NCBI GenBank assembly: GCA_964388715.1 | Contig: CAYMBN010000003.1 | Span: 1 to 64,000, forward strand | Direction of reading: 5' to 3' | Source of the DNA: an uncultured Methanosarcinales archaeon | Lineage (GTDB): Archaea; Nanobdellota; Nanobdellia; Woesearchaeales; CAYMBN01 | DNA length: 64,000 nucleotides | In this document: positions 15,377 to 57,019 of the stretch, piece after piece | Layout of the letters: every line of letters begins with the position of its first letter | Numbering within the stretch: the stretch's first letter is position 1 | Program-made: the position numbers and the translations under genes | Notes under the pieces: model-generated | Database searches by the model: none | The model's input: only the letters and a program-made list of their open reading frames with translations | Told to the model about the DNA's origin: nothing

Positions 15377-16363
15377 ATGGATTTGTTTTACAAACAAGGT
15401 AAAGGAAGTAAATTCATTAAAAAAGTAGCAACATTAGATGATTATCCTAAAGTTGAAGGATATGATTTTAGTAAAAAGTTTAATTTTAATGAATTTATTG
15501 ATTCTTTTTTTTCTACTGGGTTTCAAGCGACAAGATTAAAGGTTGCAGTGGATGTAATCAAACAAATGCGTGATAACAAAGCAAAGATTACATTTGGTTT
15601 TACTTCTAACATGATTTCATCTGGTTTGCGTGAGATAATAACTTATCTTGTCAAGAATAAGATGGTTGATCTTATTGTGACTGCAGCTGGTGGGATTGAA
15701 GAAGATATGATCAAAACATTGAAACCGTTTGTGATTGGGACGCAAAGAATGCCTGGTTCTATGTTGTTAGAGAATGGAATTAATAGAATAGGTAATATAT
15801 TTGTACCTAATGATCGTTATCTTTACTTTGAAAAGAAGTTTGTGCCTTTTTTGGAGGAGGTATATAGGAAAAAGAAGTCAATAAGTGGTGTTGAGTTTTT
15901 TAGTGAGCTTGGTAAGTATGTTAATGATAAAAGTTCTTTTCTTTATTGGGCTTACAAGAATAAGATTCCTGTGATATGTCCTGCAATAACAGATGGTGCA
16001 TTAGGTGATATGTTTTATTTTTTTAAGAAAAAACACTCTGATTTTAATGTTGATGTTATAAGTGATATGGTAGAGATAGTTGATAAAACAATGAATGCAG
16101 AGAAATCTGGGTTGATTGTTTTGGGAGCAGGTGTTGTAAAACATCATGTTCTTAATGCAAACATATTCAGAGAAGGAGCTGATTATACTGTTTTGATTAA
16201 CACAGGGAATGAGTTTGATGGTTCTGATTCTGGAGCTGACCCTGAAGAATCTGTATCATGGTGTAAGATAAGGCCAAATTCAGAATATGTTAAAGTAAAT
16301 TGTGATGCAACAATTGCATTTCCTTTGATTGTGAAAGCTGGGTTTGTTGATTATAAAAGTTAA
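15377..16363 (+). CDS. dys: Deoxyhypusine synthase
   Basis: TSNMISSGLRE, GGIEED, NRIGNIFVPN, DGSDSGA, ESVSWCK active-site Lys. Confidence 0.96.
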   Translation: MDLFYKQGKGSKFIKKVATLDDYPKVEGYDFSKKFNFNEFIDSFFSTGFQATRLKVAVDVIKQMRDNKAKITFGFTSNMISSGLREIITYLVKNKMVDLIVTAAGGIEEDMIKTLKPFVIGTQRMPGSMLLENGINRIGNIFVPNDRYLYFEKKFVPFLEEVYRKKKSISGVEFFSELGKYVNDKSSFLYWAYKNKIPVICPAITDGALGDMFYFFKKKHSDFNVDVISDMVEIVDKTMNAEKSGLIVLGAGVVKHHVLNANIFREGADYTVLINTGNEFDGSDSGADPEESVSWCKIRPNSEYVKVNCDATIAFPLIVKAGFVDYKS

Positions 16364-17223
16364 TCATAAAGAACTTGTTGTAAACCTTGTTTTTTATATT
16401 CTAATCTGAGCAGGTCTAGTCCTCTTTTAATGATTTTCATCATATCATCAAGAGTTGTATTGAATTTTTCAGCTGTTTGGGTTAAGGTTTTATACTCACC
16501 ATCAGTAAAACCAAACTTATATTCAATTGCCTTTCTTGCTTTTTCATCTAATTCCGGTAAAGCACTACGTATTTTTTGCCTGAAAATATTATTAATTGCT
16601 TCTTGTTGAACATCTACTGAAGTATCAATGATTACATCTTCGAGATATTGGCCATCACCAGTTGGAGTGTAGAATGGTATTGGTGTTTTGGTAGCTGTCA
16701 TAACTTTCTTAACTTCTTCATAAGGTAGTCCTGATTCTTCAGAAAGTTCACGTAAACTTAGATGTCTTCCATATTGTTTTGCGAGTCTTGTTGATAATCT
16801 TTTTAGTTTACTTGCACTTTCCCAAATATGAACTGGTACTCTTATATCTCTTCCTTGGTATTGAATCTCTCTTCTAATTGCTTGTTTTGCATGCCAGAAA
16901 AGTTTACTCCTTAGTTGATCTCCTGTTTTTCCCTTAAAATTCTTAATTACTTTAATTAAAACTTTATTTGCAGCTTGAATATAATTAATAAAACTGTCTT
17001 GTGAATAAGAATATCTTTTTGCTACATTTACAGAAATCATTAGATAATCTTTTACTAATTTATGAACTGCTTCAGGATCTCCTTGTTTTGCTAATGCAAT
17101 TAATCTTTCTTTATCATGAGGATTAAGTCGTGGAATTCTTCTAACTTCATTAAGATATTGTTTGACAATATCTTCTGTGAAAGTGTCTTTTTCTCCTAGG
17201 AAATCTCTTATTCTGTATATCAT
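16360..17223 (-). CDS. Divergent sigma70-family protein (copy D)
   Basis: Region 1.2 DIVKQYLNEV, WHAKQAIRREI, RDIRVPVH, region 3 and region 4 KFGFTDGEYKTL; regions 2.2 and 4.2 degenerate. Confidence 0.88.
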   Translation of the reverse strand: MIYRIRDFLGEKDTFTEDIVKQYLNEVRRIPRLNPHDKERLIALAKQGDPEAVHKLVKDYLMISVNVAKRYSYSQDSFINYIQAANKVLIKVIKNFKGKTGDQLRSKLFWHAKQAIRREIQYQGRDIRVPVHIWESASKLKRLSTRLAKQYGRHLSLRELSEESGLPYEEVKKVMTATKTPIPFYTPTGDGQYLEDVIIDTSVDVQQEAINNIFRQKIRSALPELDEKARKAIEYKFGFTDGEYKTLTQTAEKFNTTLDDMMKIIKRGLDLLRLEYKKQGLQQVLYD

Positions 17224-17245
17224 TTTTAGAAAGAATAGGTGTTAT

Positions 17246-17253
17246 TTTATAAA
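17246..17253 (-). promoter_or_regulatory. Archaeal BRE/TATA promoter of sigma copy D
   Basis: GATAAAA-TTTATAAA starting 30 nt upstream of ATG 17223 (leaderless spacing). Confidence 0.65.
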
Positions 17254-17258
17254 TTTTA

Positions 17259-18152
17259 TCAATCTAAAGGATATTCTCTTATTTCTCTTATTCTGCTAGA
17301 GTGTCTTAGTCTTAGTGTTGCTTTTGCTTCAATACCAATTATTTCTTTTGTTGTTACTCCAAATTGTTTGCATACTTCTTCTAATGAGTGTTGTGTACCA
17401 TCTTCAAGACCAACTCTGTATTTGAGAATGTTTGCTTGTCTTTCTGTTAAAAAGTCTAAAACATCTTTAACTCCTACTTTAAGACTTGATTGGTATGCAT
17501 TATCCATTGGTGTTTGTGCTTGTCTTTGTTCAGGAAAATCTCCTAGCAAAGAATCTTGTTCACCTATTGGTGTTTCTAGTGAGATTGGATCCATTGCTGT
17601 TTTTAGGATTTCTTTTACTTTTTGGACTGGGAATTGAGCTGACCTTGCGATTTCTTCATGAGTTGGATTTCTTCTATAATCTCCTGTTAGTCTTTCTGTT
17701 ATTTTTCTTATTTTGTTTATATCATCAACAAAATTTCTAGGTATTCTAATTGTTTTTTCTTGCTCTGCAAGTGCTCTTGTGATTGCTTGTCTAATGTGCC
17801 AAATAGCATATGATTGGAATTTGTATTTAGGATTGTAATTATATTTTTCAATTGCTTTTATTAATCCTTGATTGCCTTCTGCAATTAAATCAAGGAGAAA
17901 ATATCTGTTGTTTGCATATCCTCTTACAATGTTTGGGACAAGTTTCAGGTTTGCATTGATAAGTTTTTGTCTTGCTTCAAGATTCATGTTTTTGAATAAT
18001 CTTTTTTCTTCTTGATAAGGAAGATTAGGAACTTCACTAACTGCTCTTAGATACATTTTCACTGAATCTTCTAAAGGTTGTTCTCTATTTTGATCTATGA
18101 CTCTTGTTTTTTGAGCTATTCTTCCCTGTCCTGGTTTATTGTTTTTATACAT
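17259..18152 (-). CDS. Sigma70-family protein (copy C), altered -10/-35 recognition residues
   Basis: [61 protein letters not shown]. Confidence 0.93.
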   Translation of the reverse strand: MYKNNKPGQGRIAQKTRVIDQNREQPLEDSVKMYLRAVSEVPNLPYQEEKRLFKNMNLEARQKLINANLKLVPNIVRGYANNRYFLLDLIAEGNQGLIKAIEKYNYNPKYKFQSYAIWHIRQAITRALAEQEKTIRIPRNFVDDINKIRKITERLTGDYRRNPTHEEIARSAQFPVQKVKEILKTAMDPISLETPIGEQDSLLGDFPEQRQAQTPMDNAYQSSLKVGVKDVLDFLTERQANILKYRVGLEDGTQHSLEEVCKQFGVTTKEIIGIEAKATLRLRHSSRIREIREYPLD

Positions 18153-18197
18153 TTTATTAAGATATCGCCTCTAATTTATAGTGAATTATGGCTTTTA

Positions 18198-18205
18198 TTT
18201 ATAAA
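18198..18205 (-). promoter_or_regulatory. TATA box upstream of sigma copy C
   Basis: TTTATAAA in the 82-bp intergenic region; second TATAAAT at 18174-18180. Confidence 0.5.
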
Positions 18206-18234
18206 TTTAATTGAAAAATAGTGGTTTTTTAGAA

Positions 18235-19350
18235 TTAGTCTAAGTAATAATCTCTTAATTCTTTTGCTCTGCTTGGGTGTCTTAGTTTTCTTAATGCTTT
18301 TGCTTCAATTTGTCTGATACGTTCTCTTGTGACACCAAATAATTTACCTACTTCTTCTAATGTGTGTGGCACACCATCTTCTAAACCAAATCTATATTTG
18401 AGTACTTTTGCTTCTCTATCTGTTAATGTTCCTAGAACTCTTCTAATTTGTGCTTTGAGCATTGATTGAAATGCACCGTCCATTGGACTTTCTGAATCCT
18501 TATCTTCAACAAAATCAGCAATAGTACTATCACCTCCTCCAACAGGTGTTTCTAAAGGAACTGGATCTTTACCTCTTTCTAGAGCTTGTTGAACTTTGTA
18601 AATGGGTTGTCCTGAAGCTTTTGCAATTTCTTCATAAGTTGGATCTCTGCCATATTCTTGGGTTAATTTTCTTGCTGTTTTTCTTAATTTATTTATTGTT
18701 TCAACCATGTGAACAGGAATCCTAATTGTTCTTGCTTGGTCTGCAATTGCTCTTGTAATTGCTTGTCTAATCCACCAGATGGCGTATGTTGAAAATTTGA
18801 AACCTTTTCTGTATTTAAATTTTTTAACAGCTTTTAATAATCCTCTATTCCCTTCTTGAATTAAGTCAAGGAAAAGTAATCCTCTTTTTAGGTATTTTTT
18901 TGCAACAGATACAACTAATCTTAAATTTGCATTGATTAGTTTTTGTCTTGCTTCATAACTCCCTTGTTCAATAAGTTCTGCTAAATCTCTTTCTTCTTTT
19001 TCATTAAGAAGTGGAACTTCACCAATTGATTTTAAATACATTTTAACTGAATCTTCTAATGTGGCTAGTTCAGTGTGTTGATCAGGTGCTTGTTTTTTTG
19101 GTTTTTTTGTATATGGTTTTTCTTCTTTGTATCTAACTTCAACACCAGCTTTTAATATCTCTTCAAGAACATATTCCATTTGTGTTGAAGTGATTCCATC
19201 TGGTAAATCATCACTTAACCAATCATATTTTAAAGAATTTCCTGATTGTTTACCTTGTTGAATATAGGTTTTAATATATGGATTAAGTGCTTTTTCCCAT
19301 TGTGATCTTTCAGTAATATCCTCTAACTTTGTTTTTTTTGGATTTGACAT
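18235..19350 (-). CDS. rpoD: RpoD/SigA-like primary sigma70 factor (copy B)
   Basis: Region 1.1-like [105 protein letters not shown]. Confidence 0.97.
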
Positions 19351-19385
19351 TCTTCTATCTATGACTTGCTGAATTGAATTCTATA

Positions 19386-19393
19386 TTTATAAG
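19386..19393 (-). promoter_or_regulatory. TATA box upstream of sigma copy B
   Basis: CTTATAAATA ~43 nt upstream of ATG 19350. Confidence 0.55.
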
Positions 19394-19440
19394 GTTAATT
19401 GAGGAATATTTTAGTTTTTACCAAGAATTAGGGACAAATT

Positions 19441-21495
19441 TTAACCTAAATAAAATTCTCTTAATTGTTTGCTTCTGCTCGGATGTCTTAGTTTTCTTAA
19501 TGCTTTTGCTTCAATTTGTCTGATACGTTCTCTTGTAACACCAAATATTTTGCCAACTTCTTCTAATGTATGTGGACAACCATCTTCTAAACCAAAACGG
19601 TATCTGAGGACTTTTGATTCTCTTTCTGTTAAAGAATTAAGAACTCTCCTTATTTGTGCTTTTAACATTGATTGGAATGCAGTGTACATTGGATCTTCTG
19701 TTTTTTTATCTTCAACAAAATCTCCTAATGTTGAATCTTCGTCACCAATTGGTGTTTCTAATGATATTGGGTCCATTGCTGTTTTTAGGATTTCTTTTAC
19801 TTTGTGTACTGGAAGTTGAGCTGCTTTTCCAATTTCTTCATGAGTAGGATCTCTACCATATTCTTGTGTTAATTTTCTTGCTGTTTTTCTTAGTTTGTTT
19901 ATTGTTTCTACCATGTGAACTGGTATTCTTATTGTTCTTGCTTGGTCTGCAATTGCTCTTGTTATTGCTTGACGTATCCACCAGATTGCGTATGTTGAGA
20001 ATTTGAAACCTTTTCTGTATTTGAATTTTTTAACAGCTCTGATTAAGCCTTGGTTGCCTTCTTGAATTAGGTCCAGGAAAAGTAAACCTCTTTTTGTGTA
20101 TTTTTTTGCAACAGATACTACTAAACGTAGATTTGCCTCGATTAGTTTTGTTCTTGCTTCTAAGTTTCCTTGTTCAACAAGCACTGCTAACCTATATTCT
20201 TCTTCTACTTCAAGAAGTGGAACTTCACCAATTGCTTTTAAATACATTTTGACTGAATCTTCAAGAGCTTCTTTACTTAATTCAATACCAAACTGATTTA
20301 CTTTTTGTTTTCTTCTTCTTGCTGCTTTTAGTAAGGTATGTTTTCTTCTTTGTTCATCTTGTACTTCAATACCTGCTTCCATTATTGATGCAAGAAGTTC
20401 ATTAAGTGTGACTGTTTCAACTGCATCTGGTAGGTTATCATTAATCCATTTGTATGAAATAACTCCTGTTTTTTGTCCTTCTGCAAGGCATTGGTCAAGG
20501 AATATTTGCATACTTTTTTCTGAAGATACCTTTTTGTATTCAACATATTCTTCAGCAACTTTTTTAGCAGTTGTGCTAATTTCTTGATCTGTTAAAGGTT
20601 TTGTATATTGTTCAATATCTTGTTGTTGTTGCCAGTTATTTTTTACATCTTTAATGAATTTGTCAACTTGTGCTTCGAGTTTTGATTCATCTCTGTCTTT
20701 TAGAAGCCAGGTGAAGTCATAATCCTTTTTGAGAAAATAGTATGCTTTATTGACCTTTTCTAATCCTCTAAGTTTTTTTAAAAAACTTTCAGCATCATAT
20801 TCTTTTTTACCAGAAACCCTTAGTTTAATACCTGTGAGATTCTTTAAAACATTTTTAACAGATAGTTCGTTTTTTTCTTCTTCTGTAGACATACTTTTAG
20901 CTAGATGTGTATTAATACCATAACATTCTAATGTGTACCAATTAATCTCATCTCCATATTGTTCAAGTTCTGTTAGAAGTCTGTTAATGATTGTTGCGTA
21001 TTGTTTAGCTGTGTATTCTGGTTGAGGTTGTTTTTTTGCTTTGTATTCTAACAGGTTGGTTACAGTTGCTGTTTTTGTTACTGGTTCTTTTGTTAAGACT
21101 TGTTTTAATCTTTTGAGACTTTTTGTTGGGATGACATCATACTCTTTTCCTTTGTATTCAACTGTTTCAACTACATCTTCTTCATATAATTCTGCAACTT
21201 GTTGAATTGTGAGATTGAGTGCTTTTGAAATTTCTCTGATATTACAATACTTGATTAAAGTAAGTGCTTCTGAATCAAATCTTTCAAATACATCTCCTAG
21301 CATATGGTATAATAAACTTATTCCTAAGAATTGGTTATCTTCTGATAATATGTGATCAAGATCTGCTTTTAGGCCTTTTCTATACTTGAATGGTAGAATT
21401 CCCATTGGGTATAATTCATATGGGTTGATCTCTGTTTTTAATGGTGTAACTGTGCCTACTTTAGACTGATATTCTCCTCTTTTTGGTTTAACCAT
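19441..21495 (-). CDS. rpoD: RpoD/SigA-like sigma70 factor with ~320-aa N-terminal extension (copy A)
   Basis: C-terminal regions 1.1 ([18 protein letters not shown]), 1.2, 2, 3, 4 intact; extension has HTH-like [20 protein letters not shown]. Confidence 0.96.
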
Positions 21496-21517
21496 AATGT
21501 GTAAGAAAGAATGAGCA

Positions 21518-21525
21518 TTTTTAAA
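21518..21525 (-). promoter_or_regulatory. Archaeal BRE/TATA promoter of sigma copy A
   Basis: AAAGC-TTTAAAAA starting 30 nt upstream of ATG 21495. Confidence 0.6.
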
Positions 21526-22384
21526 GCTTTCGTCTTAACATTACAAAACTATTGTCCTGTGCGACTTGTAGTTTAAAGTAGTCTGAATATGTTATTTGAT
21601 CTTCTAGTGGTTGGATTTGGTTTAGGTAGTTTTCTGTTTCTGTGATACTGTCAACAACTTCTTGATATATTCTTTCTCCAATGAAATGTACTAAAAAACG
21701 TAAAAGTTTACCTTGTTTTGAATCAATTCTTCCTTTTATATGTTCATTGTTGATGTAATAATTGTTATCATCAAATGATATATCTCCTACATCTCTTGGA
21801 GGGTAGACTCTTTTAGCAAGGATAAATTGTTTAAAATAATCATCAATTGATTTTAGTTGGATAAGGTCTCCTAAGTCATCTTCTAATACTTTGACTTTAT
21901 TAGATTCCATTGCCTTTAAGATGTCTATGATTGATATTTTTGAGTAGATTTCTTGTTTTCTTAGCTCTTTGAAGATCTGTCTTACAGGAAGGTATTTATC
22001 TTGTTGTGCTTTTTCTAGTTGTTTTTGGATGATTTGTTGAGGAGATGGTTTATACAAGTCATTTAGGATAGGGAGGTCGCTACATAATATAAAATCTTCA
22101 TTATTAATTTCTTCTACAACTACTTCAATGCCAGTGTAGAGATCATCTTGGTTGACATTTGGCATTAGGTCCATGATTAAGAATGGATCAATATGTGTAT
22201 CATAATCTGGGTTTGTTTCACGCTGTTGTAAGTAATCAATAAAAAAACCAGGAATAACAAACTTTTTATTTGATTCTAGGAAAAATGTTTTTTCTAGATC
22301 TCCTAAAATAGATGGATCTTTTAAAATGCCTTGATTTATTATTTCATCAATCTTGTAATTTTGTTTTAAATTAATTTGTGTCAT
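21521..22384 (-). CDS. Protein with shared N-terminal [11 protein letters not shown] domain plus one Xis-like wHTH
   Basis: N-terminal ~110 aa paralogous to the 765- and 1062-aa neighbours; [11 protein letters not shown]...[11 protein letters not shown]. Confidence 0.8.
22121..22198. repeat. 78-bp perfect repeat, copy 1 (copy 2 at 24414-24491)
   Basis: Identical from tacttcaatgccagtgtagagatc to ggatcaatatgtgt, inside a ~165-bp highly similar block. Confidence 0.92.
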
Positions 22385-24668
22385 TTTTGTTTGTTATATA
22401 TTTTTGTGTTAACAATCTTGCTTGTTCTAGTTCAGGATTAAGTTCACAAGCTTTATCTAGGCTTCCTGCTTGAGTTATTTGTGAGTAATAGTCCAGGAAT
22501 GCTTTATGAATCCATATTTGAACACCAGATTTAAAAGATATTCTTGGAATTTTAAGTCCTTTAATATATTGTAAATATTTGTTAGAATCACTGATTTTAT
22601 TAAACTTTCTAAAATAATCTATAGCTCTGTTTCCTGTCATGAATTCAGGTCTAGTTATTACTTCTATTTTTAGCTTTAATTGTACTAAGTAATTTTTTAA
22701 TTCTGTTTTTTCTCTATGATAAGTGCTAATAGAGATTGTTTCTTTTACTTCTTCGTAGCTTACTTCTTCATTCCAGTTAACTGTTTTTAGAACTCTTAGA
22801 ACTTTTTGGTATTTTTCATCTTGCTTTAGTTGAGTTTGCCAATCAATATCTTGTGTTTCATCTAGTTTTTCTTCTAAACTTTGTTTTTGTTTGATTAAAC
22901 TGTTTACCTCAACACCTGCTTGTTTTAATTGTGGATAAAGTTCATATGCTTTTTTTAAGCTTCCAGCATCTACTATTTTCTGATAATGATCAAGGAACAC
23001 TTTGTGATACCATTTTGCCACTCTTCTTCCATGTAAAATTGGAATTTTGAATTTTTTAGCAAATTCACGCAAAGATTTTGCAATTACACCTCTTTTGCCA
23101 GTATATACTAAATAATCTAAAGCTATTTCTGTCCTTACAAAATTAGGATTAGCTTTTATTTCCATAATTAGTTTTTCTCTTAGTAAGTACTCATTAAGGT
23201 TTTTCCTTACTCTGTAAAAGGTATTTTCAGAAATTACATCCCATACTGACCCACATTCAATCTCTTCTTTGTTTTTGATTCTTTCTAGAAGTTTTACTAA
23301 TCCTTTGTATCTTTTATTTTTATTTAATTTATCTTGCCAATCAATATCTCCTGTTTCAGCAAGTTTTTTTTCTAAGTTTTTCTTTATTTGGATTATTCTG
23401 TTGACTTTTTTACTTATTTCTTTTAGTTCTGGATAAAGTTCATAAGCTTTTTCTAAGCTTCCTGCTTTAACTATTTGTTTATAATATTCAATAAACTTTT
23501 TGTGAATCCATTGGGTTTTGAATTTTCCACGTATTATTGGAATTTTGAATTCTTTGATAAAAGCAGAATATCCGTCATACCGGATTCCTTCACGTTTTCT
23601 GAAATATATAGAGCCTCTGTCTAAACCTAGGAAATTGTGGTCTGCTTTTAGTTCTAAACATAGTTTTAGGTCTAACAAATAAGTTTTCATTTTTCTTCTG
23701 AATCTTCTGTAACATGTGTTCTCCATAATATCTTCAACAGCTTTTAATCCTTGTTCTATTCCATCTGCAACTATGTTTAATGCCTTAATTATAGCTTGAT
23801 ATTTTTTGTTTTGTTTCAAATCAAATCCATCCAGTGTTTCTTCTTCTAAACTTTGCATTTGATTATTTATTTTTTCTGTTAGTGATTTTGCTTTTTCTAA
23901 CTCTGGAAATAATTTGTAAATTTCTTTTAGGTTATCGCTTTCTATTATATCATTATAATGGTCAAGAAATTTTCTATGGGTCCATTTAGTCTTTCCTGTG
24001 CCATGGATTATTGGAACTAGTTGAAGAAATGCTGTATAATCATTAGAACATAGAGTGGTAGTAATATTTGTTCTAGCATATTCTTCACCTTGTCTAGCTT
24101 TAAAAAAATCTGGATTGGCTTCTAATTCCATATTGATCTTTTGTTTTGTTAGGAATTTGTGCATGCTGAATTTATGTCGTGTGTAGCTGCAATGTGACAT
24201 AATTGGTTTAACCATTTTATAATCAATTTTTTCATCATCTATGTTTAGAAGTCTTAAAATTTTTTGATATTTTTCATCTTGTTTTAGTTCAGTCATCCAT
24301 TCTGGTTCAAAATGTTTGAAAATCTCTTGTTCAATTTTTTCACCATACAACTCATTTAGGATAGGTAAGTCACTGCATAATATAAAATCTTCATTATTAA
24401 TTTCTTCAACAAGTACTTCAATGCCAGTGTAGAGATCATCTTGGTTGACATTTGGCATTAGGTCCATGATTAAGAATGGATCAATATGTGTGTCATAATC
24501 TGGGTTTGTTTTACGTTTTTGTAGGAAGTCAGCGAAAAACCATGGTACCCAGAATTGGTTTTCATCTTCTACAAAAAATACATTATCTAAGATATTTGGT
24601 CCTTTTATAATATGATTCTCTACTAAATCATCAATACTGTATAATTGTTCTTGTTTGATTAGTATCAT
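22371..24668 (-). CDS. Shared N-terminal domain plus four ~160-aa tandem repeats with Xis-like wHTH
   Basis: Repeat LKQDEKYQK...ANPDF...IPII.G...W.HK.FLDHY...AGSL.KAYELYPEL occurs four times. Confidence 0.85.
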   Translation of the reverse strand: MILIKQEQLYSIDDLVENHIIKGPNILDNVFFVEDENQFWVPWFFADFLQKRKTNPDYDTHIDPFLIMDLMPNVNQDDLYTGIEVLVEEINNEDFILCSDLPILNELYGEKIEQEIFKHFEPEWMTELKQDEKYQKILRLLNIDDEKIDYKMVKPIMSHCSYTRHKFSMHKFLTKQKINMELEANPDFFKARQGEEYARTNITTTLCSNDYTAFLQLVPIIHGTGKTKWTHRKFLDHYNDIIESDNLKEIYKLFPELEKAKSLTEKINNQMQSLEEETLDGFDLKQNKKYQAIIKALNIVADGIEQGLKAVEDIMENTCYRRFRRKMKTYLLDLKLCLELKADHNFLGLDRGSIYFRKREGIRYDGYSAFIKEFKIPIIRGKFKTQWIHKKFIEYYKQIVKAGSLEKAYELYPELKEISKKVNRIIQIKKNLEKKLAETGDIDWQDKLNKNKRYKGLVKLLERIKNKEEIECGSVWDVISENTFYRVRKNLNEYLLREKLIMEIKANPNFVRTEIALDYLVYTGKRGVIAKSLREFAKKFKIPILHGRRVAKWYHKVFLDHYQKIVDAGSLKKAYELYPQLKQAGVEVNSLIKQKQSLEEKLDETQDIDWQTQLKQDEKYQKVLRVLKTVNWNEEVSYEEVKETISISTYHREKTELKNYLVQLKLKIEVITRPEFMTGNRAIDYFRKFNKISDSNKYLQYIKGLKIPRISFKSGVQIWIHKAFLDYYSQITQAGSLDKACELNPELEQARLLTQKYITNKNDTN
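24414..24491. repeat. 78-bp perfect repeat, copy 2
   Basis: Identical to 22121-22198. Confidence 0.92.
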
Positions 24669-27600
24669 TTTCTTTTCTTTGGTTGTGGAACTGATAAAAA
24701 TAATAATGGAAGGCTTTGATAAATATCACTTTTACTTATGTATGTTATCACATCACTTTTTTTGTAGGGTTGACCTTGTTTATTTAATCTAGGTGTTCCG
24801 TTGTCATATGCAGCACTTTTGATTGTATCTTTATTTAATCCAGAAAGTTCTGAAAGTTCATCATAAGTAAACATTTCCTGTTGTTCAAATGCTAATATTC
24901 TTTCATCAATGAAATTTTTTAATGAGTTTAAGTTATATGATCCTTGCTTCTGACGTATTTTAGTTCTTTTTATAAGTTTTTTAAAGTGTGTTTCTCTGAA
25001 CAATTGAAAATCTAAGATAATTGTTCTTTTTCTTCCTACATATTGGGTGGCTTTTTGTGAGAGTTTTTCACCTAAGTATTCCAAAATGTACATTATTGCT
25101 AGTTTTTCAGGAAGAAATTCTGGTTCTTGTTTGAGTTGTTCTTTGTGTTTGTTGATTATTTCTGCTTGACAATAGCCTGCTTGGATGTTAAACTCATGTT
25201 CTCCTAATTCTTGTAATCTTTGTGTGAGTAAGCTCTTTTTAACACCTTGTTCTTTGCATATTCTTTTGATGGTATATAATAAGTCTTTTCCATGTTTGTC
25301 TTTAATTACTCCTAAATCTTGCACTTTTTCAATAACTCTGTTTACTTTTGTTTTTTTATAAAAATTTACTTTTTTTCCAGTAAGAGGACTAATAACTTGT
25401 TTGTCCATATCAAAAAGTTGTGGGAAGTAAAAATTAAATGCTTTTGAACTACCGTATCTTTTTGTAACTAAAGCATTTCCTAGTAAATGTACTGCTCTTC
25501 TTTTATTGTAGTAGTTTATGTGATTCTTATAATATGCAATGAACCTGTCAATAAAAATCATTAATTCTTCGGCAATTCTTCTTATATTTTCGTATTTTCT
25601 GATGTTTATTCCTTTTACTCTTAGTGTTGGAAAATTCTTTTCTTCTCTCCAATCTAATTTTTGATCAAGATCTTTTTCAAGTTGAACAATGTGTTCTAGT
25701 GCACCTAAATATCTGTCGGCAAAATTATATCTTATCTCTTTGTCATTACATTGTTTGGCTACTTCTATACATTCTAATTTCTTATCTAAAATATATTGGG
25801 ATATGTCTTCTTTTGTGATTTGTTTTTTTGTAGTCTTTCCTAAAATATGGTCAATTGATTCAACAAAACAAAATCCTTCCTCAAGTAATTCTTTATCTTT
25901 TTGTCCACCTAATAACATTAAGATACCTTGTTTTTCTAGTTTAGTCATCTGTTTGACTTTCTCTAATGTGTAAAGGAAAGGGTTGCCTTCAAAGTCAACT
26001 AGGATTCCTTCTTCATCCAGTTGTTTTTTTATTTCTTCAAGTTCTTGTTCAATAGAAGGATTGTAAAAACCTACTACTTCACCAGAAATTGGATGTTGTA
26101 ATTGGTGATCTGGTGTTAGGTCAATATGTTTTCTGTATAATTCATAAGCTGAATTATGTTCTCCAATTAGTTCATATTTTATTTTTGACTCAATTCTTTT
26201 ATCCATAACATAATTTACTTGGGCGTTATTAAAATCAATTTCTACTCTGATCATGTGTTCTATGTCTTTTATTAATGGATGTAATTTTCTCCCAATAAAT
26301 GTGAGATCTGACCTTCTTACTTTACTTAAATTTACATCCCCTCTTTTTAATATATAATCTGGGCCATTTTCAGTTAAATCAATTAGTTGTCTGAATACAT
26401 CTAGTTTAGGTTCTGTTGATCTTTTTACTCTAAATCTGAGGGTTTCATCTGTAATATTTTCTAATTCATCTTGTAAATTATTATATCTTTCAAGTAATCG
26501 TTCTTTGTTAAATTCGTACTCTAACTCTCTTCTTGCTTCATCATGTTTAGAAAATTCTTTTTCAACAACACCTTCCTTATGATATCTAAGCAATTCTTGT
26601 TTGTCAACAACCTCAAGAGCTCCTATTCTTATTGTTTTAAGTTTTTTAACTTGTCTTATTGGGACTAATCGCTTGTGTTTTACAAATCTAATTGGGATAT
26701 ATTCAAAAGGGTAATCTTGGATATAATATATTTTTTCTCGTCTTTTTTGTTTATGTTTTTTACGTGTTGGTTTGTATCCTGGTTTAAATATCTCTGGGTT
26801 GTCTTCTTTTAAAATAACTTCTTCAAGTCCGTTAGGGTCAAGGGATATATTTCTTGTTTTAATTTTCCAAGTCCTAACCTGCTGTGCAACTGATTCTGAA
26901 GTTACTTTCAATAATTCAGCCAATTCAACAAAATTGTATTTTTCTTTTCCAACACATCTTAATTCTTTTATTTGTTCAATTTCATCTTGATATAATTGGT
27001 TATCTTTATCTAAACTGATAAGGCCTTGTCTTACAGATCTTATAAAAATTTGTTCACAAGTTCCTAATTCTTTACCTTTTATTCCAAGTGATGCAAAAAA
27101 ATGTCCATAGAATCTAAATAGACTTCTTTTTAGTTTGATAATCTCTGATTCAGGGATTCTTATTGTTTTTGTTTTAAAATTATATGCTTGGGCTTCTCCT
27201 TTTTTTGTATAAGAAGCAACTGTGTTATCAGTCACTCCTATTATTTCATTTACAGTTTTTCTATCAAATAATCTTTCACCAAAATGTTCTTTTTTAAATC
27301 CAAAATGTTTTTCTAGTTTTGTTTCAAGTTCTTGTCTTTCATATACAAAAGGATTGGCACCAAATGTTTTTTTTACTTTTTTTCCTGGTTTTTTTCTTTT
27401 TATATTACATTTCTTTTTCATGTGTTCCCATACTATAATGGAAACATTCAGTAATTTGAGTATTTCTGGTGTTGTATATTCATCTTGAATGAATTTTTCA
27501 ACTATGACTGGTTCATCATACAATGTGTTTAGGATTGATAATTCACTCGCTGGGACAAAATCTTGGCCTTCTATTTCTTCTACAAGGACTTCAAGGCCAG

Positions 27601-27853
27601 TAAAGAGATTATCTTGGTTGACATTATGCATTAGGTCTAAAATTATGAATGGGTCTATGTTTGTATCATAGTCTGGGTTTGTTTCACGTTGTTTTAAGAA
27701 TTCAAGAACAAAGCCTGGGATTAGTGTTCCATTGTTATGTGACTTTAAAACAAATGTTTTTTCCTGGTCCCATAATACAGTTGGGTCTTGTAATACATTT
27801 GATTCTAATAAATAAGTAAGATTGTAAAGCTTCTGCTCTTGAATTCTTATCAT
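24665..27853 (-). CDS. 1062-aa protein: shared N-terminal domain plus multiple Xis/MerR-like HTH modules
   Basis: FDRKTVNEIIGVTDNTVASYTKKGEAQAY...IRIPESEI, YNFVELAELLKVTSESV, FTYDELSELSGLNKDTI; internal ~235-aa duplication. Confidence 0.85.
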   Translation of the reverse strand: MIRIQEQKLYNLTYLLESNVLQDPTVLWDQEKTFVLKSHNNGTLIPGFVLEFLKQRETNPDYDTNIDPFIILDLMHNVNQDNLFTGLEVLVEEIEGQDFVPASELSILNTLYDEPVIVEKFIQDEYTTPEILKLLNVSIIVWEHMKKKCNIKRKKPGKKVKKTFGANPFVYERQELETKLEKHFGFKKEHFGERLFDRKTVNEIIGVTDNTVASYTKKGEAQAYNFKTKTIRIPESEIIKLKRSLFRFYGHFFASLGIKGKELGTCEQIFIRSVRQGLISLDKDNQLYQDEIEQIKELRCVGKEKYNFVELAELLKVTSESVAQQVRTWKIKTRNISLDPNGLEEVILKEDNPEIFKPGYKPTRKKHKQKRREKIYYIQDYPFEYIPIRFVKHKRLVPIRQVKKLKTIRIGALEVVDKQELLRYHKEGVVEKEFSKHDEARRELEYEFNKERLLERYNNLQDELENITDETLRFRVKRSTEPKLDVFRQLIDLTENGPDYILKRGDVNLSKVRRSDLTFIGRKLHPLIKDIEHMIRVEIDFNNAQVNYVMDKRIESKIKYELIGEHNSAYELYRKHIDLTPDHQLQHPISGEVVGFYNPSIEQELEEIKKQLDEEGILVDFEGNPFLYTLEKVKQMTKLEKQGILMLLGGQKDKELLEEGFCFVESIDHILGKTTKKQITKEDISQYILDKKLECIEVAKQCNDKEIRYNFADRYLGALEHIVQLEKDLDQKLDWREEKNFPTLRVKGINIRKYENIRRIAEELMIFIDRFIAYYKNHINYYNKRRAVHLLGNALVTKRYGSSKAFNFYFPQLFDMDKQVISPLTGKKVNFYKKTKVNRVIEKVQDLGVIKDKHGKDLLYTIKRICKEQGVKKSLLTQRLQELGEHEFNIQAGYCQAEIINKHKEQLKQEPEFLPEKLAIMYILEYLGEKLSQKATQYVGRKRTIILDFQLFRETHFKKLIKRTKIRQKQGSYNLNSLKNFIDERILAFEQQEMFTYDELSELSGLNKDTIKSAAYDNGTPRLNKQGQPYKKSDVITYISKSDIYQSLPLLFLSVPQPKKRK

Positions 27854-27854
27854 T

Positions 27855-27914
27855 TTTCATTTCAAATTTCTTTGAAATTTGTAATTAATAGGAAATTCCA
27901 TTTCCAATTCATTT
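27855..27914 (-). repeat. 60-bp intergenic double-hairpin repeat, copy 1
   Basis: 53/60 identical to 52025-52084; minus strand GGAAAT-GGA-ATTTCC and CAAATTTC-AAA-GAAATTTG. Confidence 0.85.
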
Positions 27915-27916
27915 GA

Positions 27917-30817
27917 TTAAGTTTTCTGCATTAATCCTCTAAGAATAATTTTAGCTCCTTCTCTTTTAACTGTTCCAGAATCTGGGAAATCTTCTATGTT
28001 AGTTGCTTTTCTGCTTTGGACTGCTCTAAAAACATCTCTTTTTTGAATAGATGGGTCTAATCTTGTAGCAGTGGATGGAAGTGATCTAACAAGGATTTCA
28101 TCTCCTTCTAGCATAGAATCGATTTTTGAGTCAATACTATCTGCTTGAGCAGCAGCTGGTTCTGGTGCTGCAGGTTTAACAGGAGGGATTGGTTCTTGTA
28201 CTGCTACTGGTTCAGCTCCTGCTTCAGCTGGAGTGCCTGGTTTGTAAGGTGTTTCTGGTTTTTTTGGAACAGGTGTTACTTTTATTGGTGGTTTACCTCT
28301 TGTTCCTTTACCTCTTTCACTAATTATTCCCTCAATTTTGTTTCCATATTGTTCTTTTACTTTTTCAATATTACCAGTTTCTAGAACAAATATTTCTCCT
28401 TTATATCCATGAACCCTTTGTTTTTTAATTAAGCCTGATAAACCATCTGTGTTTTTATATAATTTCTGAAACTCTGTAACATCTAAATTAAAAATTGTTG
28501 CAACTGGTTTTGAACCTATAATGTGCTTTGATGTTGGAGTTAAATGATCTTTATAATATTCTTTAGCTTTATTTATTATCTCATCTAATTCTGCTCTTGT
28601 TGCAACACACACAGGAACCATATTTTGACCAACTAGTTTATCTTCTTTTTTTGGTTTACCAATTACTTCTTTTCTTATTAAAAATTGATATTTTGAAATA
28701 GTAAAATCAAAGTCAAGCTTTCCATTGATATAATCTATATGTTCTTTTTGACCATATATCTTTTCTTCTGTTGGTTCTTCTGGTTTAGTTCCTTCTATCT
28801 TAGCTAAAATATCTGAAAGTTCGCCTGTTTCTTGTTCAGCTTTTCTTTTGAGATATTCTGTTATTTCTGGCATGTTGTGGCTGAGTGAAACTATTTGCTT
28901 TGTGTCAATGTTTCTTTTTAATTCAAGATAAGCAAAACTCAAAAGTTTGTCAAGTGCAATCTTTTGTTCTCCATCAATTTGTTCTATTATAGGAAGATAT
29001 TCTTCCCATTTCTCAGAATCATCTGGTGAATGTCCAAATAGGGTTGCTACTTGATCTCTTGATAAATATATTTCACCATTAAGTCCTTGTTCTCTTTCTT
29101 CTTTAACCTTTTTATCAATCCTTACATAATCATCTATAGTCTCAATAGCATCAAAAACACTATCTGGATTCATGTACTCTTCTTTTTCTTTAATTCCTTG
29201 GCTATTAAGGATTCTTACAAATAAATTTTCAAATTTGTCTAGATCAATATCTTTAGAATAAAATTCTGTTAGTGATTTCAAAACATCTAGTATATTATAT
29301 ATTGTTTTGTGTTTTTCATCTTGGCTGGCTGCATCTTCTCCAACAGTTTTATTGATCTCTATTTCTATCTGAGAGTATCGTGCTTCTACTTCTGGTAGAT
29401 CTGGTTCTGGAGGGATTGTAGCTGGTTCTTCTTCCTTACTAACTTCACCAACAAACTTATACTTTGTTTCAATTTTTTCATCAGTGATTAATTTTTCTAG
29501 AACACTTGTATTCATTACTTTTCCAATTCTATGCTTAAAACTCCTTCTACTGGGTTCATTTTTGTATTCTTCAGAAGCGTCTTGTAGTAGATTTGAATAT
29601 TTTCTACGCACTGTTTCAGCACTTATACCTAAAATATCAGCAGTTAAAGCTATACTTATTTCTGTGTTTCTTGTTAAATTGTAATCAATTTTTGGTTCTG
29701 CTGTTGCCTTAGGATGTCCTGGAGTGAATAATTCTGAATATTTTAATATTTGAGTTGCGGTTATCCCTTTTTTGTAATCTAATTTCTTAACTCCTCTTTT
29801 TTTGTTGTGTCTTTTTACTCTTGAAAATAATGTTTTATAGTTTACACCAGATAATTTTTCTATTTGTGAAAGAGTGTACTTCTTTCTTGGGTGACTTCTG
29901 TCAAGCCAAGGTAGGATTTCTTCAGGAACTTTAGGTTTAGCTTTTTCAACTGTTTTATCAATTGTTTCAGAAACAATAGGTTCTGTTGGAACAGCTTTAT
30001 GTTCCTTCCCAGTAATCTGATCTACAACACTAGCAGGACAGTAACCCATCTTGATAAGATTTTCATGTACTTTGGATTCTTGTTGCTTTTTGATTAATTC
30101 TTCTTTGTTTAAACCAGTTAGTTCAACAGCTTTATCAAGTGAGTATAGTAATGGTTGACCAGCAACATCCATTACTTCAGGTAGTTTTTCTCTTACAACA
30201 TGCTTATATAATGATGATCTGTTGACTGGTGTTGGTCTTACATCAAATGTAATATTGTATTTTTTACCAAATTCTTGTAATGCATTAATAATAACTTGGC
30301 TTATTTGTTCATATTTATCAGCAGGGTGTCCTTCTTGTTGTGTATCCAACACAAATCTTTTGAAGTATCTGTTATCTTGTTTAGTTTCAATACCTTCTAG
30401 AGTTAAATTATTGAGTAATTCACTTTCACCGAGGATAGGTAAGATTACTTCAAAAGTATGACCATGGTTAGAAAGAACAAAATAGGTTGGGATTGTGTTT
30501 TCTTCATCAAAGCATGCAAACTTTTCCATTAATCTTTTTTCTCCTTCAGAAAGGTAGCTTTCGTCTAGTTCAATGGAATCTTGATTTAATTCTTGTCTAA
30601 ATGCTTTGAATCTTTCATATAAAAGTAATTCTTGATCAAATTTTTCAGGATCTTCTTGTCTAAGTGCTTCAACATGTTTGATTCTTTTATCAACTTCTTG
30701 GTATAATTTTTCAACAAGATCTGTTATGAGAAGATTTTTTCCTCTTATTGTGTTATCATGTGATTTTGAGTCTATTTGAGAAAAACCATTTGCAAAATAA
30801 TCAGCATTAATTTCCAT
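27917..30817 (-). CDS. 966-aa multi-HTH protein
   Basis: ATG 30817 behind GAGGTG; YSLDKAVELTGLNK, YTLSQIEKLSGVNYKTL, ISIALTADILGISAETVRRKY; Pro/Ala-rich linker near C-terminus. Confidence 0.82.
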   Translation of the reverse strand: MEINADYFANGFSQIDSKSHDNTIRGKNLLITDLVEKLYQEVDKRIKHVEALRQEDPEKFDQELLLYERFKAFRQELNQDSIELDESYLSEGEKRLMEKFACFDEENTIPTYFVLSNHGHTFEVILPILGESELLNNLTLEGIETKQDNRYFKRFVLDTQQEGHPADKYEQISQVIINALQEFGKKYNITFDVRPTPVNRSSLYKHVVREKLPEVMDVAGQPLLYSLDKAVELTGLNKEELIKKQQESKVHENLIKMGYCPASVVDQITGKEHKAVPTEPIVSETIDKTVEKAKPKVPEEILPWLDRSHPRKKYTLSQIEKLSGVNYKTLFSRVKRHNKKRGVKKLDYKKGITATQILKYSELFTPGHPKATAEPKIDYNLTRNTEISIALTADILGISAETVRRKYSNLLQDASEEYKNEPSRRSFKHRIGKVMNTSVLEKLITDEKIETKYKFVGEVSKEEEPATIPPEPDLPEVEARYSQIEIEINKTVGEDAASQDEKHKTIYNILDVLKSLTEFYSKDIDLDKFENLFVRILNSQGIKEKEEYMNPDSVFDAIETIDDYVRIDKKVKEEREQGLNGEIYLSRDQVATLFGHSPDDSEKWEEYLPIIEQIDGEQKIALDKLLSFAYLELKRNIDTKQIVSLSHNMPEITEYLKRKAEQETGELSDILAKIEGTKPEEPTEEKIYGQKEHIDYINGKLDFDFTISKYQFLIRKEVIGKPKKEDKLVGQNMVPVCVATRAELDEIINKAKEYYKDHLTPTSKHIIGSKPVATIFNLDVTEFQKLYKNTDGLSGLIKKQRVHGYKGEIFVLETGNIEKVKEQYGNKIEGIISERGKGTRGKPPIKVTPVPKKPETPYKPGTPAEAGAEPVAVQEPIPPVKPAAPEPAAAQADSIDSKIDSMLEGDEILVRSLPSTATRLDPSIQKRDVFRAVQSRKATNIEDFPDSGTVKREGAKIILRGLMQKT

Positions 30818-30963
30818 ACTAAACACCTCTGAAAAGCAAAAATCGTTTATCTTATTTAAATTTTTTCTTTGATTTGTCGTCGGAAAAAGTGGTAAAAACA
30901 GCAATATTTTATCTAAAATTTTAAATATGAATTAGTATTTATAATTGAATTAGAGGTGTTCAA

Positions 30964-31914
30964 ATGAAAAAAAGTGTTTTTGTTATACTATTCTTGTTAG
31001 TAGTTCCAATTGTTTTTAGTTTAGAAATTAGTGAGATTGCTGTTTATGTTAATGGTGACAAAGATATTGTAAGAGATAAAGGTACTATATATGATGTTCA
31101 GCCTGATTCTGATGTCAAGTTGAGGATAACTGTTGATAATGAAAAATCTACTGAAGTTGAAGATGTTAAGATTAAAGCAGTGATTTATGATATTGATGAT
31201 CATGATGATCTTGATGATGAAACATCTCATTTTGATATTGAAGGGCATGATGATAAAACAAAAACACTTGAGTTTGAGGTTCCTTTAGAAGTTGAATCAG
31301 GAACTTATAGATTGGCTATTACAGCTGAATCTAATTATGGTGAAACAGATTCTGCAACACTCAATCTTGAATTGGATAAGAATTCTCATGATGTTAGGGT
31401 TTTTCAATTATCACTTTCACCTGAAAGAGTTAGATGTAAAAGAAATTTTTATCTTTCATTTAAAGTTATTAATGTTGGGGAAGATAATGAAGATGTTGTG
31501 TTAACTGTTAATAATGAACAATTGGAAATTAATGATGTTCATAAGTTTTGGTTAAGTAAAAGTGTTGGTGATGATGATAATGAAAAAAGAAAAATGTATT
31601 CTTATTCTTTGAATGGTGCAAGGCCAGGAGATTATATTATTAATGTTAATTTGCAATATAAAACAAAATTACAAACTTATAAAGTTCCATTAAGAATTGA
31701 AAAGTGTACTAAGGAATATTCTATTGATGGTGAAGTTGAATATTTGAAAGCTTATAGAATTGATGATGAAAATGTTCCACCTGAAGTTACTTCTTTTGTA
31801 ACAAAAACAGTAACAAAAGAAAAAACAGATAACACTTTAACACTTTTAGTTGTGAGTGGGTTGTTAGGATTTATTGTAGTTGTGTTTTTATTGATGTGGT
31901 TGTTGAAGAATTAA
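30964..31914 (+). CDS. Cell-surface protein, two Ig-like domains, C-terminal TM anchor
   Basis: Signal peptide, acidic beta-rich repeats, C-terminal TM; paralogue of 42083-43063. Confidence 0.8.
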   Translation: MKKSVFVILFLLVVPIVFSLEISEIAVYVNGDKDIVRDKGTIYDVQPDSDVKLRITVDNEKSTEVEDVKIKAVIYDIDDHDDLDDETSHFDIEGHDDKTKTLEFEVPLEVESGTYRLAITAESNYGETDSATLNLELDKNSHDVRVFQLSLSPERVRCKRNFYLSFKVINVGEDNEDVVLTVNNEQLEINDVHKFWLSKSVGDDDNEKRKMYSYSLNGARPGDYIINVNLQYKTKLQTYKVPLRIEKCTKEYSIDGEVEYLKAYRIDDENVPPEVTSFVTKTVTKEKTDNTLTLLVVSGLLGFIVVVFLLMWLLKN

Positions 31915-34174: not shown

Positions 34175-34213
34175 AGGTTAATTTTATATATTTCTGGAGT
34201 ATTTTGAGACATA

Positions 34214-35089: not shown

Positions 35090-35090
35090 A

Positions 35091-36002: not shown

Positions 36003-36102
36003 NNNNNNNNNNNNNNNNNNNNNNNNNNNNNNNNNNNNNNNNNNNNNNNNNNNNNNNNNNNNNNNNNNNNNNNNNNNNNNNNNNNNNNNNNNNNNNNNNN
36101 NN
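36003..36102. other. Assembly gap (100 N)
   Basis: Run of N between two convergent genes whose stop codons are missing. Confidence 0.99.
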
Positions 36103-40767: not shown

Positions 40768-40820
40768 GTTTCTATTTTAACATAAATCTTATAAATGAGA
40801 TGTATTAATATACTATCTAT

Positions 40821-40913
40821 GGGCCTATGGTGTAATGGATTAGCACAATTGGCTTCGGATGTGTTTATCACAGATGATACCAGTTAATCAGGGTTCGAAT
40901 CCCTGTAGGCCTA
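40821..40913 (+). tRNA. tRNA-Arg(UCG) with 20-nt intron at 37/38 (40859-40878)
   Basis: GGGCCTA/TAGGCCT acceptor, ATTGG-CTTCGG^A-CCAGT anticodon arm, GGTTCGAATCC T arm, relaxed BHB; TATA at ~40788-96; no encoded CCA. Confidence 0.93.
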
Positions 40914-40961
40914 TTTTTTCTATGAAAAATTTTATAAATAAACTGTGGTTTTGATGCAAAC

Positions 40962-56949: not shown

Positions 56950-57019
56950 CTCTATTCACTAGATTACAATAATATTTATAAGTGAATTCTGTATTTTATT
57001 GAACTAAGTGGGGGTTTTG

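Follow-up and report, generated by a model that had tools for sequence, protein, structure and literature searches.

The 64,000-nucleotide stretch analyzed here (positions 1 to 64,000 of contig CAYMBN010000003.1; hereafter the window, which is the part of the genome that our data cover) harbors on its minus strand, at 16360–30904, eight adjoining co-oriented open reading frames (ORFs), designated g1 to g8 from the 3' end (Table 1). The four downstream genes encode sigma-70 family paralogues, and the four upstream genes encode orphan proteins. Sigma factors define bacterial transcription initiation, and the genes surrounding the locus are archaeal. Initiation in archaea uses TBP, TFB and TFE, according to the accessible text of PMC7289017. 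An initial annotation of this DNA had reported eight contiguous co-oriented genes, in which upstream proteins with repeated helix-turn-helix (HTH) modules are followed by four sigma-70 paralogues, and had proposed that they constitute one new functional module. The ORF list agrees with the contiguity and the shared orientation, including the end coordinate 30817, which is the ATG of g8, and the overlaps at 24665/24668 (g7/g6, the sequence ATGA) and 22371/22384 (g6/g5, 14 nt) are borne out by the ORF coordinates. For g8, ATG 30817 is a more likely start than TTG 30904 because GAGGTG lies just upstream of it. No RNA families or tRNAs were found inside 16360–30904. The observation was thus largely right, while its reading as a new coupled system is not supported by the analysis.

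Table 1. Genes of the sigma-70 locus and associated TATA-box-like motifs (positions in the window)
Feature	Position	Strand	Description
g1	16360-17223	-	287 aa, highly diverged sigma paralogue, sigma2-sigma3-sigma4 still detectable
g2	17259-18152	-	297 aa, sigma paralogue without region 1.1, DNA-recognition residues changed
g3	18235-19350	-	371 aa, complete primary-type sigma paralogue, regions 1.1 to 4
g4	19441-21495	-	684 aa, N-extension (~residues 1-320), then regions 1.1, 1.2, 2, 3 and 4
g5	21521-22384	-	287 aa, orphan, acidic (isoelectric point 4.75), N-domain at ~residues 1-115, C-terminal part without match
g6	22371-24668	-	765 aa, orphan, N-domain, then four tandem ~160-aa repeats
g7	24665-27853	-	1062 aa, orphan, N-domain, sub-threshold Xis-like HTH (203-243), two ~55-aa modules
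g8	27917-30817	-	966 aa, orphan, from ATG 30817 (995 aa from TTG 30904), without N-domain, one 55-aa module
TATA-box-like TTTATAAA	17246-17253	-	30 nt upstream of g1 start
TATA-box-like TTTATAAAT	18197-18205	-	53 nt upstream of g2 start
TATA-box-like TTATAAAT	19385-19392	-	42 nt upstream of g3 start
TATA-box-like TTTAAAAAT	21517-21525	-	30 nt upstream of g4 start, over g5 stop codon
TATA-box-like TTTAAATAA	30852-30860	-	43 nt upstream of g8 ATG, GAGGTG before start codon

The Pfam models of sigma-70 regions 2, 3 and 4 and the RpoD models of NCBIfam match g1–g4, in agreement with the four paralogues that had been placed at the downstream end, and RpoD models rank first in NCBIfam for each of the four. 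Above its gathering scores, Pfam detects regions 1.1, 1.2, 2, 3 and 4 in g4 and g3, regions 2 to 4 in g2, and regions 3 and 4 in g1. Region 2 of g1 was missed by Pfam but found by a profile of regions 1.2–2 built from homologues (61.3 bits), and with this profile counted all four proteins display the sigma2-sigma3-sigma4 order of the sigma-70 family. Group 1 membership, taken as the presence of region 1.1 together with a score above the cut-off of TIGR02393 (RpoD_Cterm, 354), applies to g4 (region 1.1 at 28.6 bits against 22.5; TIGR02393 at 376.8) and to g3 (25.9 and 365.1), whereas g2 (250.3) and g1 (123.4) fall below the TIGR02393 cut-off, and no region 1.1 was found in either of them with Pfam or with homologue-built profiles. 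The cut-off of the full-length equivalog NF006666 (572) was reached by none of the four (g4 480.4, g3 455.9, g2 288.0, g1 134.3). Pairwise identity is 67% between g4 and g3, 58% between g4 and g2, 51% between g3 and g2, and 26–33% between g1 and the others (32% for g1 with g3 and with g4), and the solved structures closest to g3 are SigA/RpoD chains (best E 9e-110).

In sum of features, g4 and g3 resemble bacterial RpoD/SigA proteins: they show the full order of regions 1.1, 1.2, 2, 3 and 4, retain 94–97% of the near-invariant positions defined below, pass the RpoD C-terminal model and, among solved structures, have SigA/RpoD chains as best relatives. They differ from them in their archaeal host, in a region 1.1 and linker that are uncharged where the bacterial ones are strongly acidic, in leaving the full-length equivalog cut-offs unreached and, for g4, in bearing a 320-aa orphan extension. 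A further difference concerns the gene order, since dnaG (primase) lies directly upstream of the sigma homologue in 6/6 bacterial loci sampled (of 80 fetched), whereas the orphan g5 occupies that place here.

In the group 2 sigma families of bacteria such as cyanobacteria and actinomycetes, a primary sigma is joined by close paralogues, of which some are without region 1.1 and differ in promoter preference. The genes g1–g4 are like them in combining a primary-type sigma with related paralogues, some without region 1.1, and unlike them in being strictly tandem, in residing in an archaeon, and in a g1 far more degenerate than is typical.

For g4, the initial annotation had described a bridging gene that fuses an HTH-containing N-terminus to a complete RpoD. 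The complete RpoD, from region 1.1 to region 4, is present, and the extension of ~320 aa that precedes it is without a family match. A non-sigma N-terminal part followed by an RpoD-like C-terminal part, as in g4, is also the build of MzaA from the MZA anti-phage system, and g4 matches the sigma part of MzaA (NCBIfam NF041931, residues 475–713; PADLOC PDLC02203). The likeness ends there, as g4 scores 342.2 bits against a cut-off of 800 and its N-terminal part is unmatched. An MZA defence system was rejected because the MzaA score is too low and PADLOC found no other Mza component among the 10 proteins scanned.

We defined 154 near-invariant columns as those at least 95% conserved in 114 homologues (P0011–P0124) that were taken as bacterial and that, being the nearest matches of one search, many of them without a source name, form a biased sample. 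Of these columns g4 keeps 149, g3 145, g2 100 and g1 59, and four further sigma sequences from the protein collection, P0007–P0010, keep 150 each. Four stretches of g4 and g3 are identical or nearly so to the bacterial consensus, and we take them to be the segments for core binding (2.2), −10 recognition and melting (2.3–2.4), the extended −10 (3.0) and −35 recognition (4.2). In g2, substitutions have hit the second tryptophan of WW, the PVHMVE motif and five positions within the TRERIRQ helix; g1 is altered throughout. Over sigma2–sigma4, the proportions of nonsynonymous and synonymous differences (pN and pS) between g4 and g3 are 0.117 and 0.396, a ratio of ~0.23 that is a rough upper bound only, as pS is near compositional saturation at a GC content of third codon positions (GC3) of ~0.15.

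These observations argue for purifying selection on g4 and g3 in the archaeal lineage, because both appear intact while g2 and g1 have drifted far at the same locus, which provides an internal control. We are confident that g4 and g3 are strongly constrained and that g2 and g1 are drifting or being retargeted. We infer that g4 and g3 still work as sigma factors, attaching to a multisubunit polymerase and recognising and opening promoter DNA. The bias of the reference set and the looseness of the pN/pS bound both count against the case for selection, as does one possible history: should P0007–P0009 prove to be bacterial, g4 may have been transferred more recently, its conservation would partly be a matter of recency, and the argument for purifying selection would be weaker.

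In bacteria, the acidic region 1.1 of sigma sits in the DNA channel and prevents the free protein from binding DNA. Region 1.1 and the linker together carry a net charge of 0 in g4, −1 in g3 and −1 to −2 in P0007–P0009, whereas, of the 113 homologues in which this segment spans 60 residues or more, 108 lie at −8 or below and no more than 2 at −2 or above (median −14). A basic linker has taken the place of the acidic one, and g4 and g3 lack the strongly acidic region 1.1 and linker expected of a primary sigma. The neutral region 1.1 is a derived, clade-specific and unusual feature, and its neutralisation suggests a changed working environment.

The sigma genes are preceded by promoter motifs that they have in common with the rest of the window. 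Counting both strands, there are 30 copies of the octamer TTTATAAA, 26 of them in intergenic DNA, which accounts for 10.6% of the window, and it lies 30–60 nt upstream of housekeeping genes, for example those for ribosomal protein L15e and alanyl-tRNA synthetase (AlaRS). TATA-box-like motifs precede each of g1–g4 and also g8 (Table 1); by eye, the layout of TTTAAAAAT upstream of g4 resembles the upstream regions of the genes at 44016 and 52079. The genes g1–g4 are therefore separate transcription units behind native archaeal-type TATA-box promoters, and because each of the four has its own TATA box, the eight genes are not one operon. An operon does seem to be formed by g7, g6 and g5. On the minus strand, a motif of 26 nt, AATGAATTGGAAATGRAATTTCYWAT, is present at 27888–27913, between g8 and g7, and once more at 52058–52083 (two copies, where 100 shuffles lead one to expect none). 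The copy at 52058–52083, which stands just upstream of a hydrophobic 165-aa ORF (51548–52045), forms a 14-bp hairpin (−12.4 kcal/mol, z −4.83), and the copy at 27888–27913 folds weakly; the motif may be a shared operator or terminator.

A sigma factor is a bacterial hallmark, and in a scan of genome contigs with g3 the best 80 of at least 598 stretches matched were all bacterial (51–66% identity), with no archaeal locus among them. Both facts would fit an assembly chimera or a mis-binned bacterial fragment, an origin that is nevertheless barely credible in view of what surrounds the sigma genes. To the left of the locus lie genes for L15e, a PAC2 proteasome assembly protein, Pop5, proteasome alpha, SBDS, Rrp4, Rrp41, Rrp42 and deoxyhypusine synthase, the last of which converges on g1 with a 4-nt overlap. 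To the right lie an archaeal-type AlaRS (TIGR03683, 869.6 bits against a cut-off of 744.7), an archaeal/eukaryal MiaB-like-B enzyme, a TrmB-like regulator, RecJ-like DHH proteins and tRNA-Arg. The GC content (0.29–0.32), GC3 (0.13–0.22) and synonymous codon usage of g1–g8 are all inside the range of the archaeal core genes, so composition is uniform over the locus. The sigma genes bear the same TATA motif as the housekeeping genes, the protein collection has g5 from 3 contigs and g3 from 2, no bacterial match among those best 80 stretches exceeds 66% identity, and a chimera would require two invisible joins. The possibility of a chimeric join with a bacterial contig, which had been raised for the sigma genes at the outset, is thereby set aside.

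We conclude firmly that the locus is native to an archaeon, which would be of DPANN type. DPANN is a group of ultrasmall archaea with reduced genomes, and we infer the affiliation from the low GC content, the bacterial-type genes and sub-threshold PACE-CTERM-like matches rather than from phylogeny. A provirus or integrated element was also considered and rejected: PHROGs returned only sigma families and weak HTH matches, there is no compositional break, and g7 and g8 had no tblastn match in 50,697 phage records, which likewise disfavours it. As the initial annotation had remarked, no integrase or phage structural gene is visible; PHROGs gave none among the 10 proteins scanned.

In a collection of 5.8 billion proteins, the nearest non-self matches of g3 among the 120 listed are P0007–P0010 (65–75% identity), and the next among the matches listed are RpoD proteins named for Wallbacteria, Riflebacteria, Muiribacteriota, Atribacteria and others (54–60%). 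Residues 322–683 of g4 align with P0008 at 87% identity over 362 residues without a gap, and the N-terminal parts do not align. P0007–P0009 are in fact relatives of g4, and because the N-extension cannot be aligned with P0008 although the sigma part is 87% identical, the bridging fusion in g4 is lineage-specific. A maximum-likelihood tree of 40 rows, comprising the four window sigmas and 36 of the 120 listed matches (the closest and the named ones), groups g2, g3, g4 and P0007–P0009 with a support of 98 in the Shimodaira–Hasegawa-like approximate likelihood ratio test (SH-aLRT). Its end branches measure 0.22 for g4, 0.92 for g3, 3.38 for g2 and 10 for g1. Constraining g1 into the g2–g4 clade was not rejected in the approximately unbiased test (p-AU 0.625), and the constrained tree was better by 0.70 log-likelihood units, which is no proof of the clade.

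The DNA itself retains traces of duplication: the 3' 300 nt of g2, g3 and g4 are 69–81% identical, and the same codon is used at 175/235 conserved residues of g4 and g3, against 141.8 expected from codon usage (g4–g2, 105/155 against 89.9; g4–g1, 54/88 against 47.3). The simplest history is the horizontal acquisition of one rpoD/sigA-type gene from bacteria, taken up without its dnaG neighbour, followed by tandem duplication in place. The slowest-evolving copy, g4, is probably the ancestral one. Under such a history g4 would be the conserved founder that gained a lineage-specific N-terminal extension, and g3 a near-intact duplicate; g2 would have lost region 1.1 and changed the residues that read the −10, extended −10 and −35 elements, and g1 would have diverged almost past recognition.

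The upstream proteins g5–g8 matched no family at curated threshold in Pfam, NCBIfam, PHROGs or PADLOC, and no known anti-sigma family was found among them at threshold in Pfam or NCBIfam. An N-domain of ~115 residues is shared by g5, g6 and g7 at 52–66% identity and is lacking in g8, so that the domain described as common to the upstream proteins is confined to three of the four. Its profile, searched against 1.84 billion representative proteins, returned 3 matches, all of them this organism's own sequences or fragments, namely g6, a fragment with the same sequence as the beginning of g7, and P0004, a form of g5 that is 123 residues long. P0004 agrees with g5 at every position up to about residue 96, diverges from there and ends in an acidic tail; it may represent the g5 locus of another strain or a variant created by assembly. 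The search for near-length homologues of g5 recovered only g5 itself, and the search with the g4 N-extension recovered nothing, not even g4; the 684-aa form of g4 may be absent from the searched protein collection.

A hidden Markov model of the g6 repeat finds its four copies at E ~1e-71 to 1e-76 each and nothing significant elsewhere in the window, and the ~55-residue module occurs in two copies in g7 and one in g8. A relationship of this module to the g6 repeat was rejected (hhalign probability 0.4%), and neither profile found anything significant among solved structures. The DNA encoding the N-domain is 91% identical between g5 and g6 over 195 nt, which implies that the N-domain family is also duplicating or converting locally.

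Repeated Xis/MerR-like winged HTH modules had been described in the upstream proteins; in our searches, no HTH signal there reaches any curated threshold. Residues 203–243 of g7 score 23.1 bits against HTH_17, for which the gathering score is 27, with model positions 9–48 of 51 aligned, and g7 yields further HTH signals from PHROG 6401 (DNA binding protein, E 4.8e-6) and PADLOC mad1 (E 3.7e-6). The segment is thus like an Xis/excisionase-type HTH (HTH_17, MerR-like clan) in covering most of the model. It departs from that type in its sub-gathering score and in its best match among solved structures, 4j2n ('Gp37', a 58-aa phage protein), which at E 1.5 is not significant, and the other proposed modules are unseen by profiles. 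When the g4 N-extension and g5–g8 were cut into 84 overlapping pieces of 80 aa, 7 of these gave HTH-type matches at E<=0.1, all sub-threshold. The weaker ones lie in the g4 N-extension (MerR_2, 12.5–15.5 bits against 29; DUF7645), in repeat 4 of g6 (Mga) and in g8; g5 had no HTH match, and jackhmmer started from the g7 segment recruited no further module. The HTH-like strings that the initial annotation picked out by eye may be correct, and g5–g8 may bind DNA.

Structure-based comparison added little. An AlphaFold2 model of one g6 repeat is mostly helical at a predicted local distance difference test score (pLDDT) of 58.9, and that of g5 has a pLDDT of 41.0, both too poor for a fold assignment because the sequences have no relatives; Foldseek with the g6-repeat model gave no match at E<=0.001. 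In the ESM Atlas, where matches serve as leads only, g7 is best matched to viral hypothetical proteins (0.85) and g5 to hypothetical proteins of candidate-phyla bacteria (0.90). No sigma-derived domains were found in the g4 N-extension or in g5–g8. Taken on their sequences, g5–g8 appear to be fast-evolving, locally duplicating orphan genes, and adjacency is their sole tie to the sigmas.

The presence of sigma-70 in archaea has already been published, and the window adds detail and testability rather than discovery. In the accessible parts of Castelle et al. (2021, PMC8204110), sigma-70 genes (fam00359) are reported from DPANN genomes, with an especially high prevalence in Woesearchaeota, mis-binning is excluded by the phylogeny of co-encoded proteins, and no anti-sigma factors are found in DPANN, the mechanism being described as unclear; the supplement row for fam00359 gives module_15 and K03086. 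The window agrees with that account, so far as it is accessible, in having primary-sigma-like genes (K03086) on a contig with archaeal co-encoded genes and in lacking an anti-sigma factor. It differs in that the tandem arrays, the graded decay of the paralogues, the N-extended forms, the promoters and the charge of region 1.1 are, relative to the accessible account of the PMC8204110 set, described for the window only. A full-text literature search, with subscription journals outside its reach, found no other papers on archaeal sigma factors, and in the literature as far as it was accessible no account turned up of archaeal sigma genes arranged in tandem, of decaying paralogues, of their promoters or of how region 1.1 is charged.

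What the sigmas do can be approached from these features. Our leaning, tentative and at somewhat less than even confidence, is that they act within the archaeon on its own polymerase, with targets outside the window. We lean this way because archaeal promoters drive the sigma genes, because the sigmas have no export signal, because region 1.1 is remodelled in a clade-specific manner, and because paralogues with altered DNA-reading residues are what would be expected of regulators of the cell's own genome. Mechanistically, g4 and g3 would act as RNA-polymerase-binding, promoter-reading and DNA-melting factors in the archaeal cell, most likely docking on the clamp coiled-coil of the archaeal RNA polymerase, a surface common to it and bacterial beta-prime; they would serve a minority class of −35/−10-type promoters outside the window, and the loss of acidic charge from region 1.1 would be an adaptation to the archaeal setting. 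Several points weigh against action on the archaeal polymerase. No precedent is known for sigma binding to an archaeal RNA polymerase, and the retained core-binding, −10 and −35 motifs would be accounted for no less simply if the partner were a bacterial-type core. There is, moreover, no target-like promoter for a primary sigma within the 64 kb: the cluster region contains 86 sites of −35/−10 type against 78.3 +/- 10.3 in shuffles, hence no enrichment, the best −35/−10 score within the 100 nt preceding a gene averages 8.31 over 51 genes, compared with 8.35 +/- 0.11 for shuffled sequence, and TTGACA (7/67 intergenic) and TATAAT (13/152) occur between genes at the background rate. The retention of bacterial motifs, together with the lack of sigma-type promoters in the window, keeps alive two readings in which the sigmas serve a bacterial enzyme. 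The initial annotation had suggested both, and also a third possibility, sigma proteins turned into stand-alone DNA binders.

In one of the two, the sigmas would be produced in the archaeon and, by way of cell–cell contact, reach a bacterium that is its partner or host; on the core polymerase of that bacterium, g4 and g3 would mimic the primary sigma, and g2 and g1 would redirect the enzyme. The 149 and 145 of 154 positions kept by g4 and g3, core-binding and promoter-reading motifs included, would suit this reading, as would the lack of sigma-70-type promoter enrichment in the window's own intergenic regions and the envelope-type genes that the window contains (two FemAB-like Acetyltransf_6, LPG_synthase_C, polysaccharide deacetylase, Lgt), and the accessible text of PMC8204110 asks whether some DPANN have bacterial hosts. 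Inspection by eye of g1–g4, however, reveals no N-terminus resembling a signal peptide or export signal. No transfer route for sigmas into a bacterial partner is known, a copy of the housekeeping sigma would be redundant in a bacterium, and the loss of acidity from a region 1.1 that 108/113 homologues keep acidic would be unexpected for a bacterial holoenzyme; we therefore rate action on a partner as rather unlikely. The other reading supposes that a bacterial-type core polymerase (rpoA/B/C) is encoded elsewhere in the genome and served by the four sigmas. It would be the simplest account of the full conservation of sigma motifs and of the several paralogues, yet the 64-kb window contains no rpoA/B/C gene, and the main text of PMC8204110, in its accessible form, does not use the term 'RNA polymerase' and names sigma factors but no bacterial core among the bacterial systems that DPANN possess; we consider this reading very unlikely. 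The initial annotation had placed all eight genes in one system. In such a system the N-domain proteins, with their several proposed HTHs, would control the sigmas, tether them or join them as partners, perhaps in the manner of an unconventional anti-sigma or co-factor. Adjacency and co-orientation, the local duplication of both gene sets and the weak HTH signals in g7, g8, g6 and the g4 N-extension are compatible with such a system, and a novel regulator is conceivable where no conventional anti-sigma is found in DPANN (PMC8204110, accessible parts). We regard it as quite unlikely, since the N-domain has no relative outside the organism among the 1.84 billion representatives and the g4 N-extension none at all, so that conserved linkage is absent, every sigma gene stands behind a promoter of its own, P0008 lacks an extension of the g4 type, and no sigma-derived domain was detected in g5–g8 or the N-extension; the proposal of one functional module is left unsupported. 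A bolder form of these proposals, somewhat unlikely in our estimate, starts from bacterial primary sigmas that are fully competent and kept by purifying selection in an archaeon with promoters of the TATA/BRE type; it is that the archaeal RNA polymerase is programmable by sigma-70, with the neutral region 1.1 as an adaptation and g2 and g1 as new specificities, or else that the sigmas are cross-domain effectors on a bacterial partner's RNA polymerase; either way, the orphans could regulate the sigmas.

Several other features of the contig were observed in passing. Bacterial envelope-type genes lie at 33218–36107, 49335–50084 and 55308–56771 on the archaeal contig, encoding two FemAB-like Acetyltransf_6 proteins, an LPG_synthase_C-like protein, a polysaccharide deacetylase and the prolipoprotein diacylglyceryl transferase Lgt (TIGR00544, 176 bits against 118.9). 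Two ORFs in the first of these intervals, 34214–35089 and 35013–36107 (plus strand), overlap by 77 nt; the second starts from TTG, and its true start may be further downstream. Further bacterial-type genes, at 3928–6680, 52079–52918 and 54218–54817, encode a glpX-type fructose-1,6-bisphosphatase, a class II aldolase, a DUF1385 protein and a DnaQ/PolC-type DEDD exonuclease, and several of them have upstream TATA-box-like motifs, identified by eye, as in the archaeal genes. The NCBIfam PACE-CTERM model 'putative S-layer protein' matches the plus-strand genes at 30964–31914, which is divergent from g8, and 42083–43063 below threshold (63.8 and 38.9 bits against 110). A tRNA-Arg (TCG) at 40820–40914 (plus strand) is 95 nt long with all 71 Rfam model positions matched, which implies an intron of ~22 nt after the anticodon. 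Lastly, a giant ORF of more than 2330 aa, with a subtilase domain, an alpha/beta hydrolase region and a PKD domain, extends from 57008 to 64000 (plus strand) and is open at the window end.

An intact sigma long kept in an archaeon would imply an interaction between sigma and the archaeal polymerase, an unseen bacterial-type polymerase, or action on a bacterial partner, and any of these three, if true, would matter greatly to our understanding of how transcription evolved or of how DPANN symbioses work. The locus is a good test case, in that two intact and two diverging copies stand side by side and the intact ones carry a neutral region 1.1. If the archaeal RNA polymerase can be programmed by sigma-70, the finding would bridge two kinds of initiation machinery.

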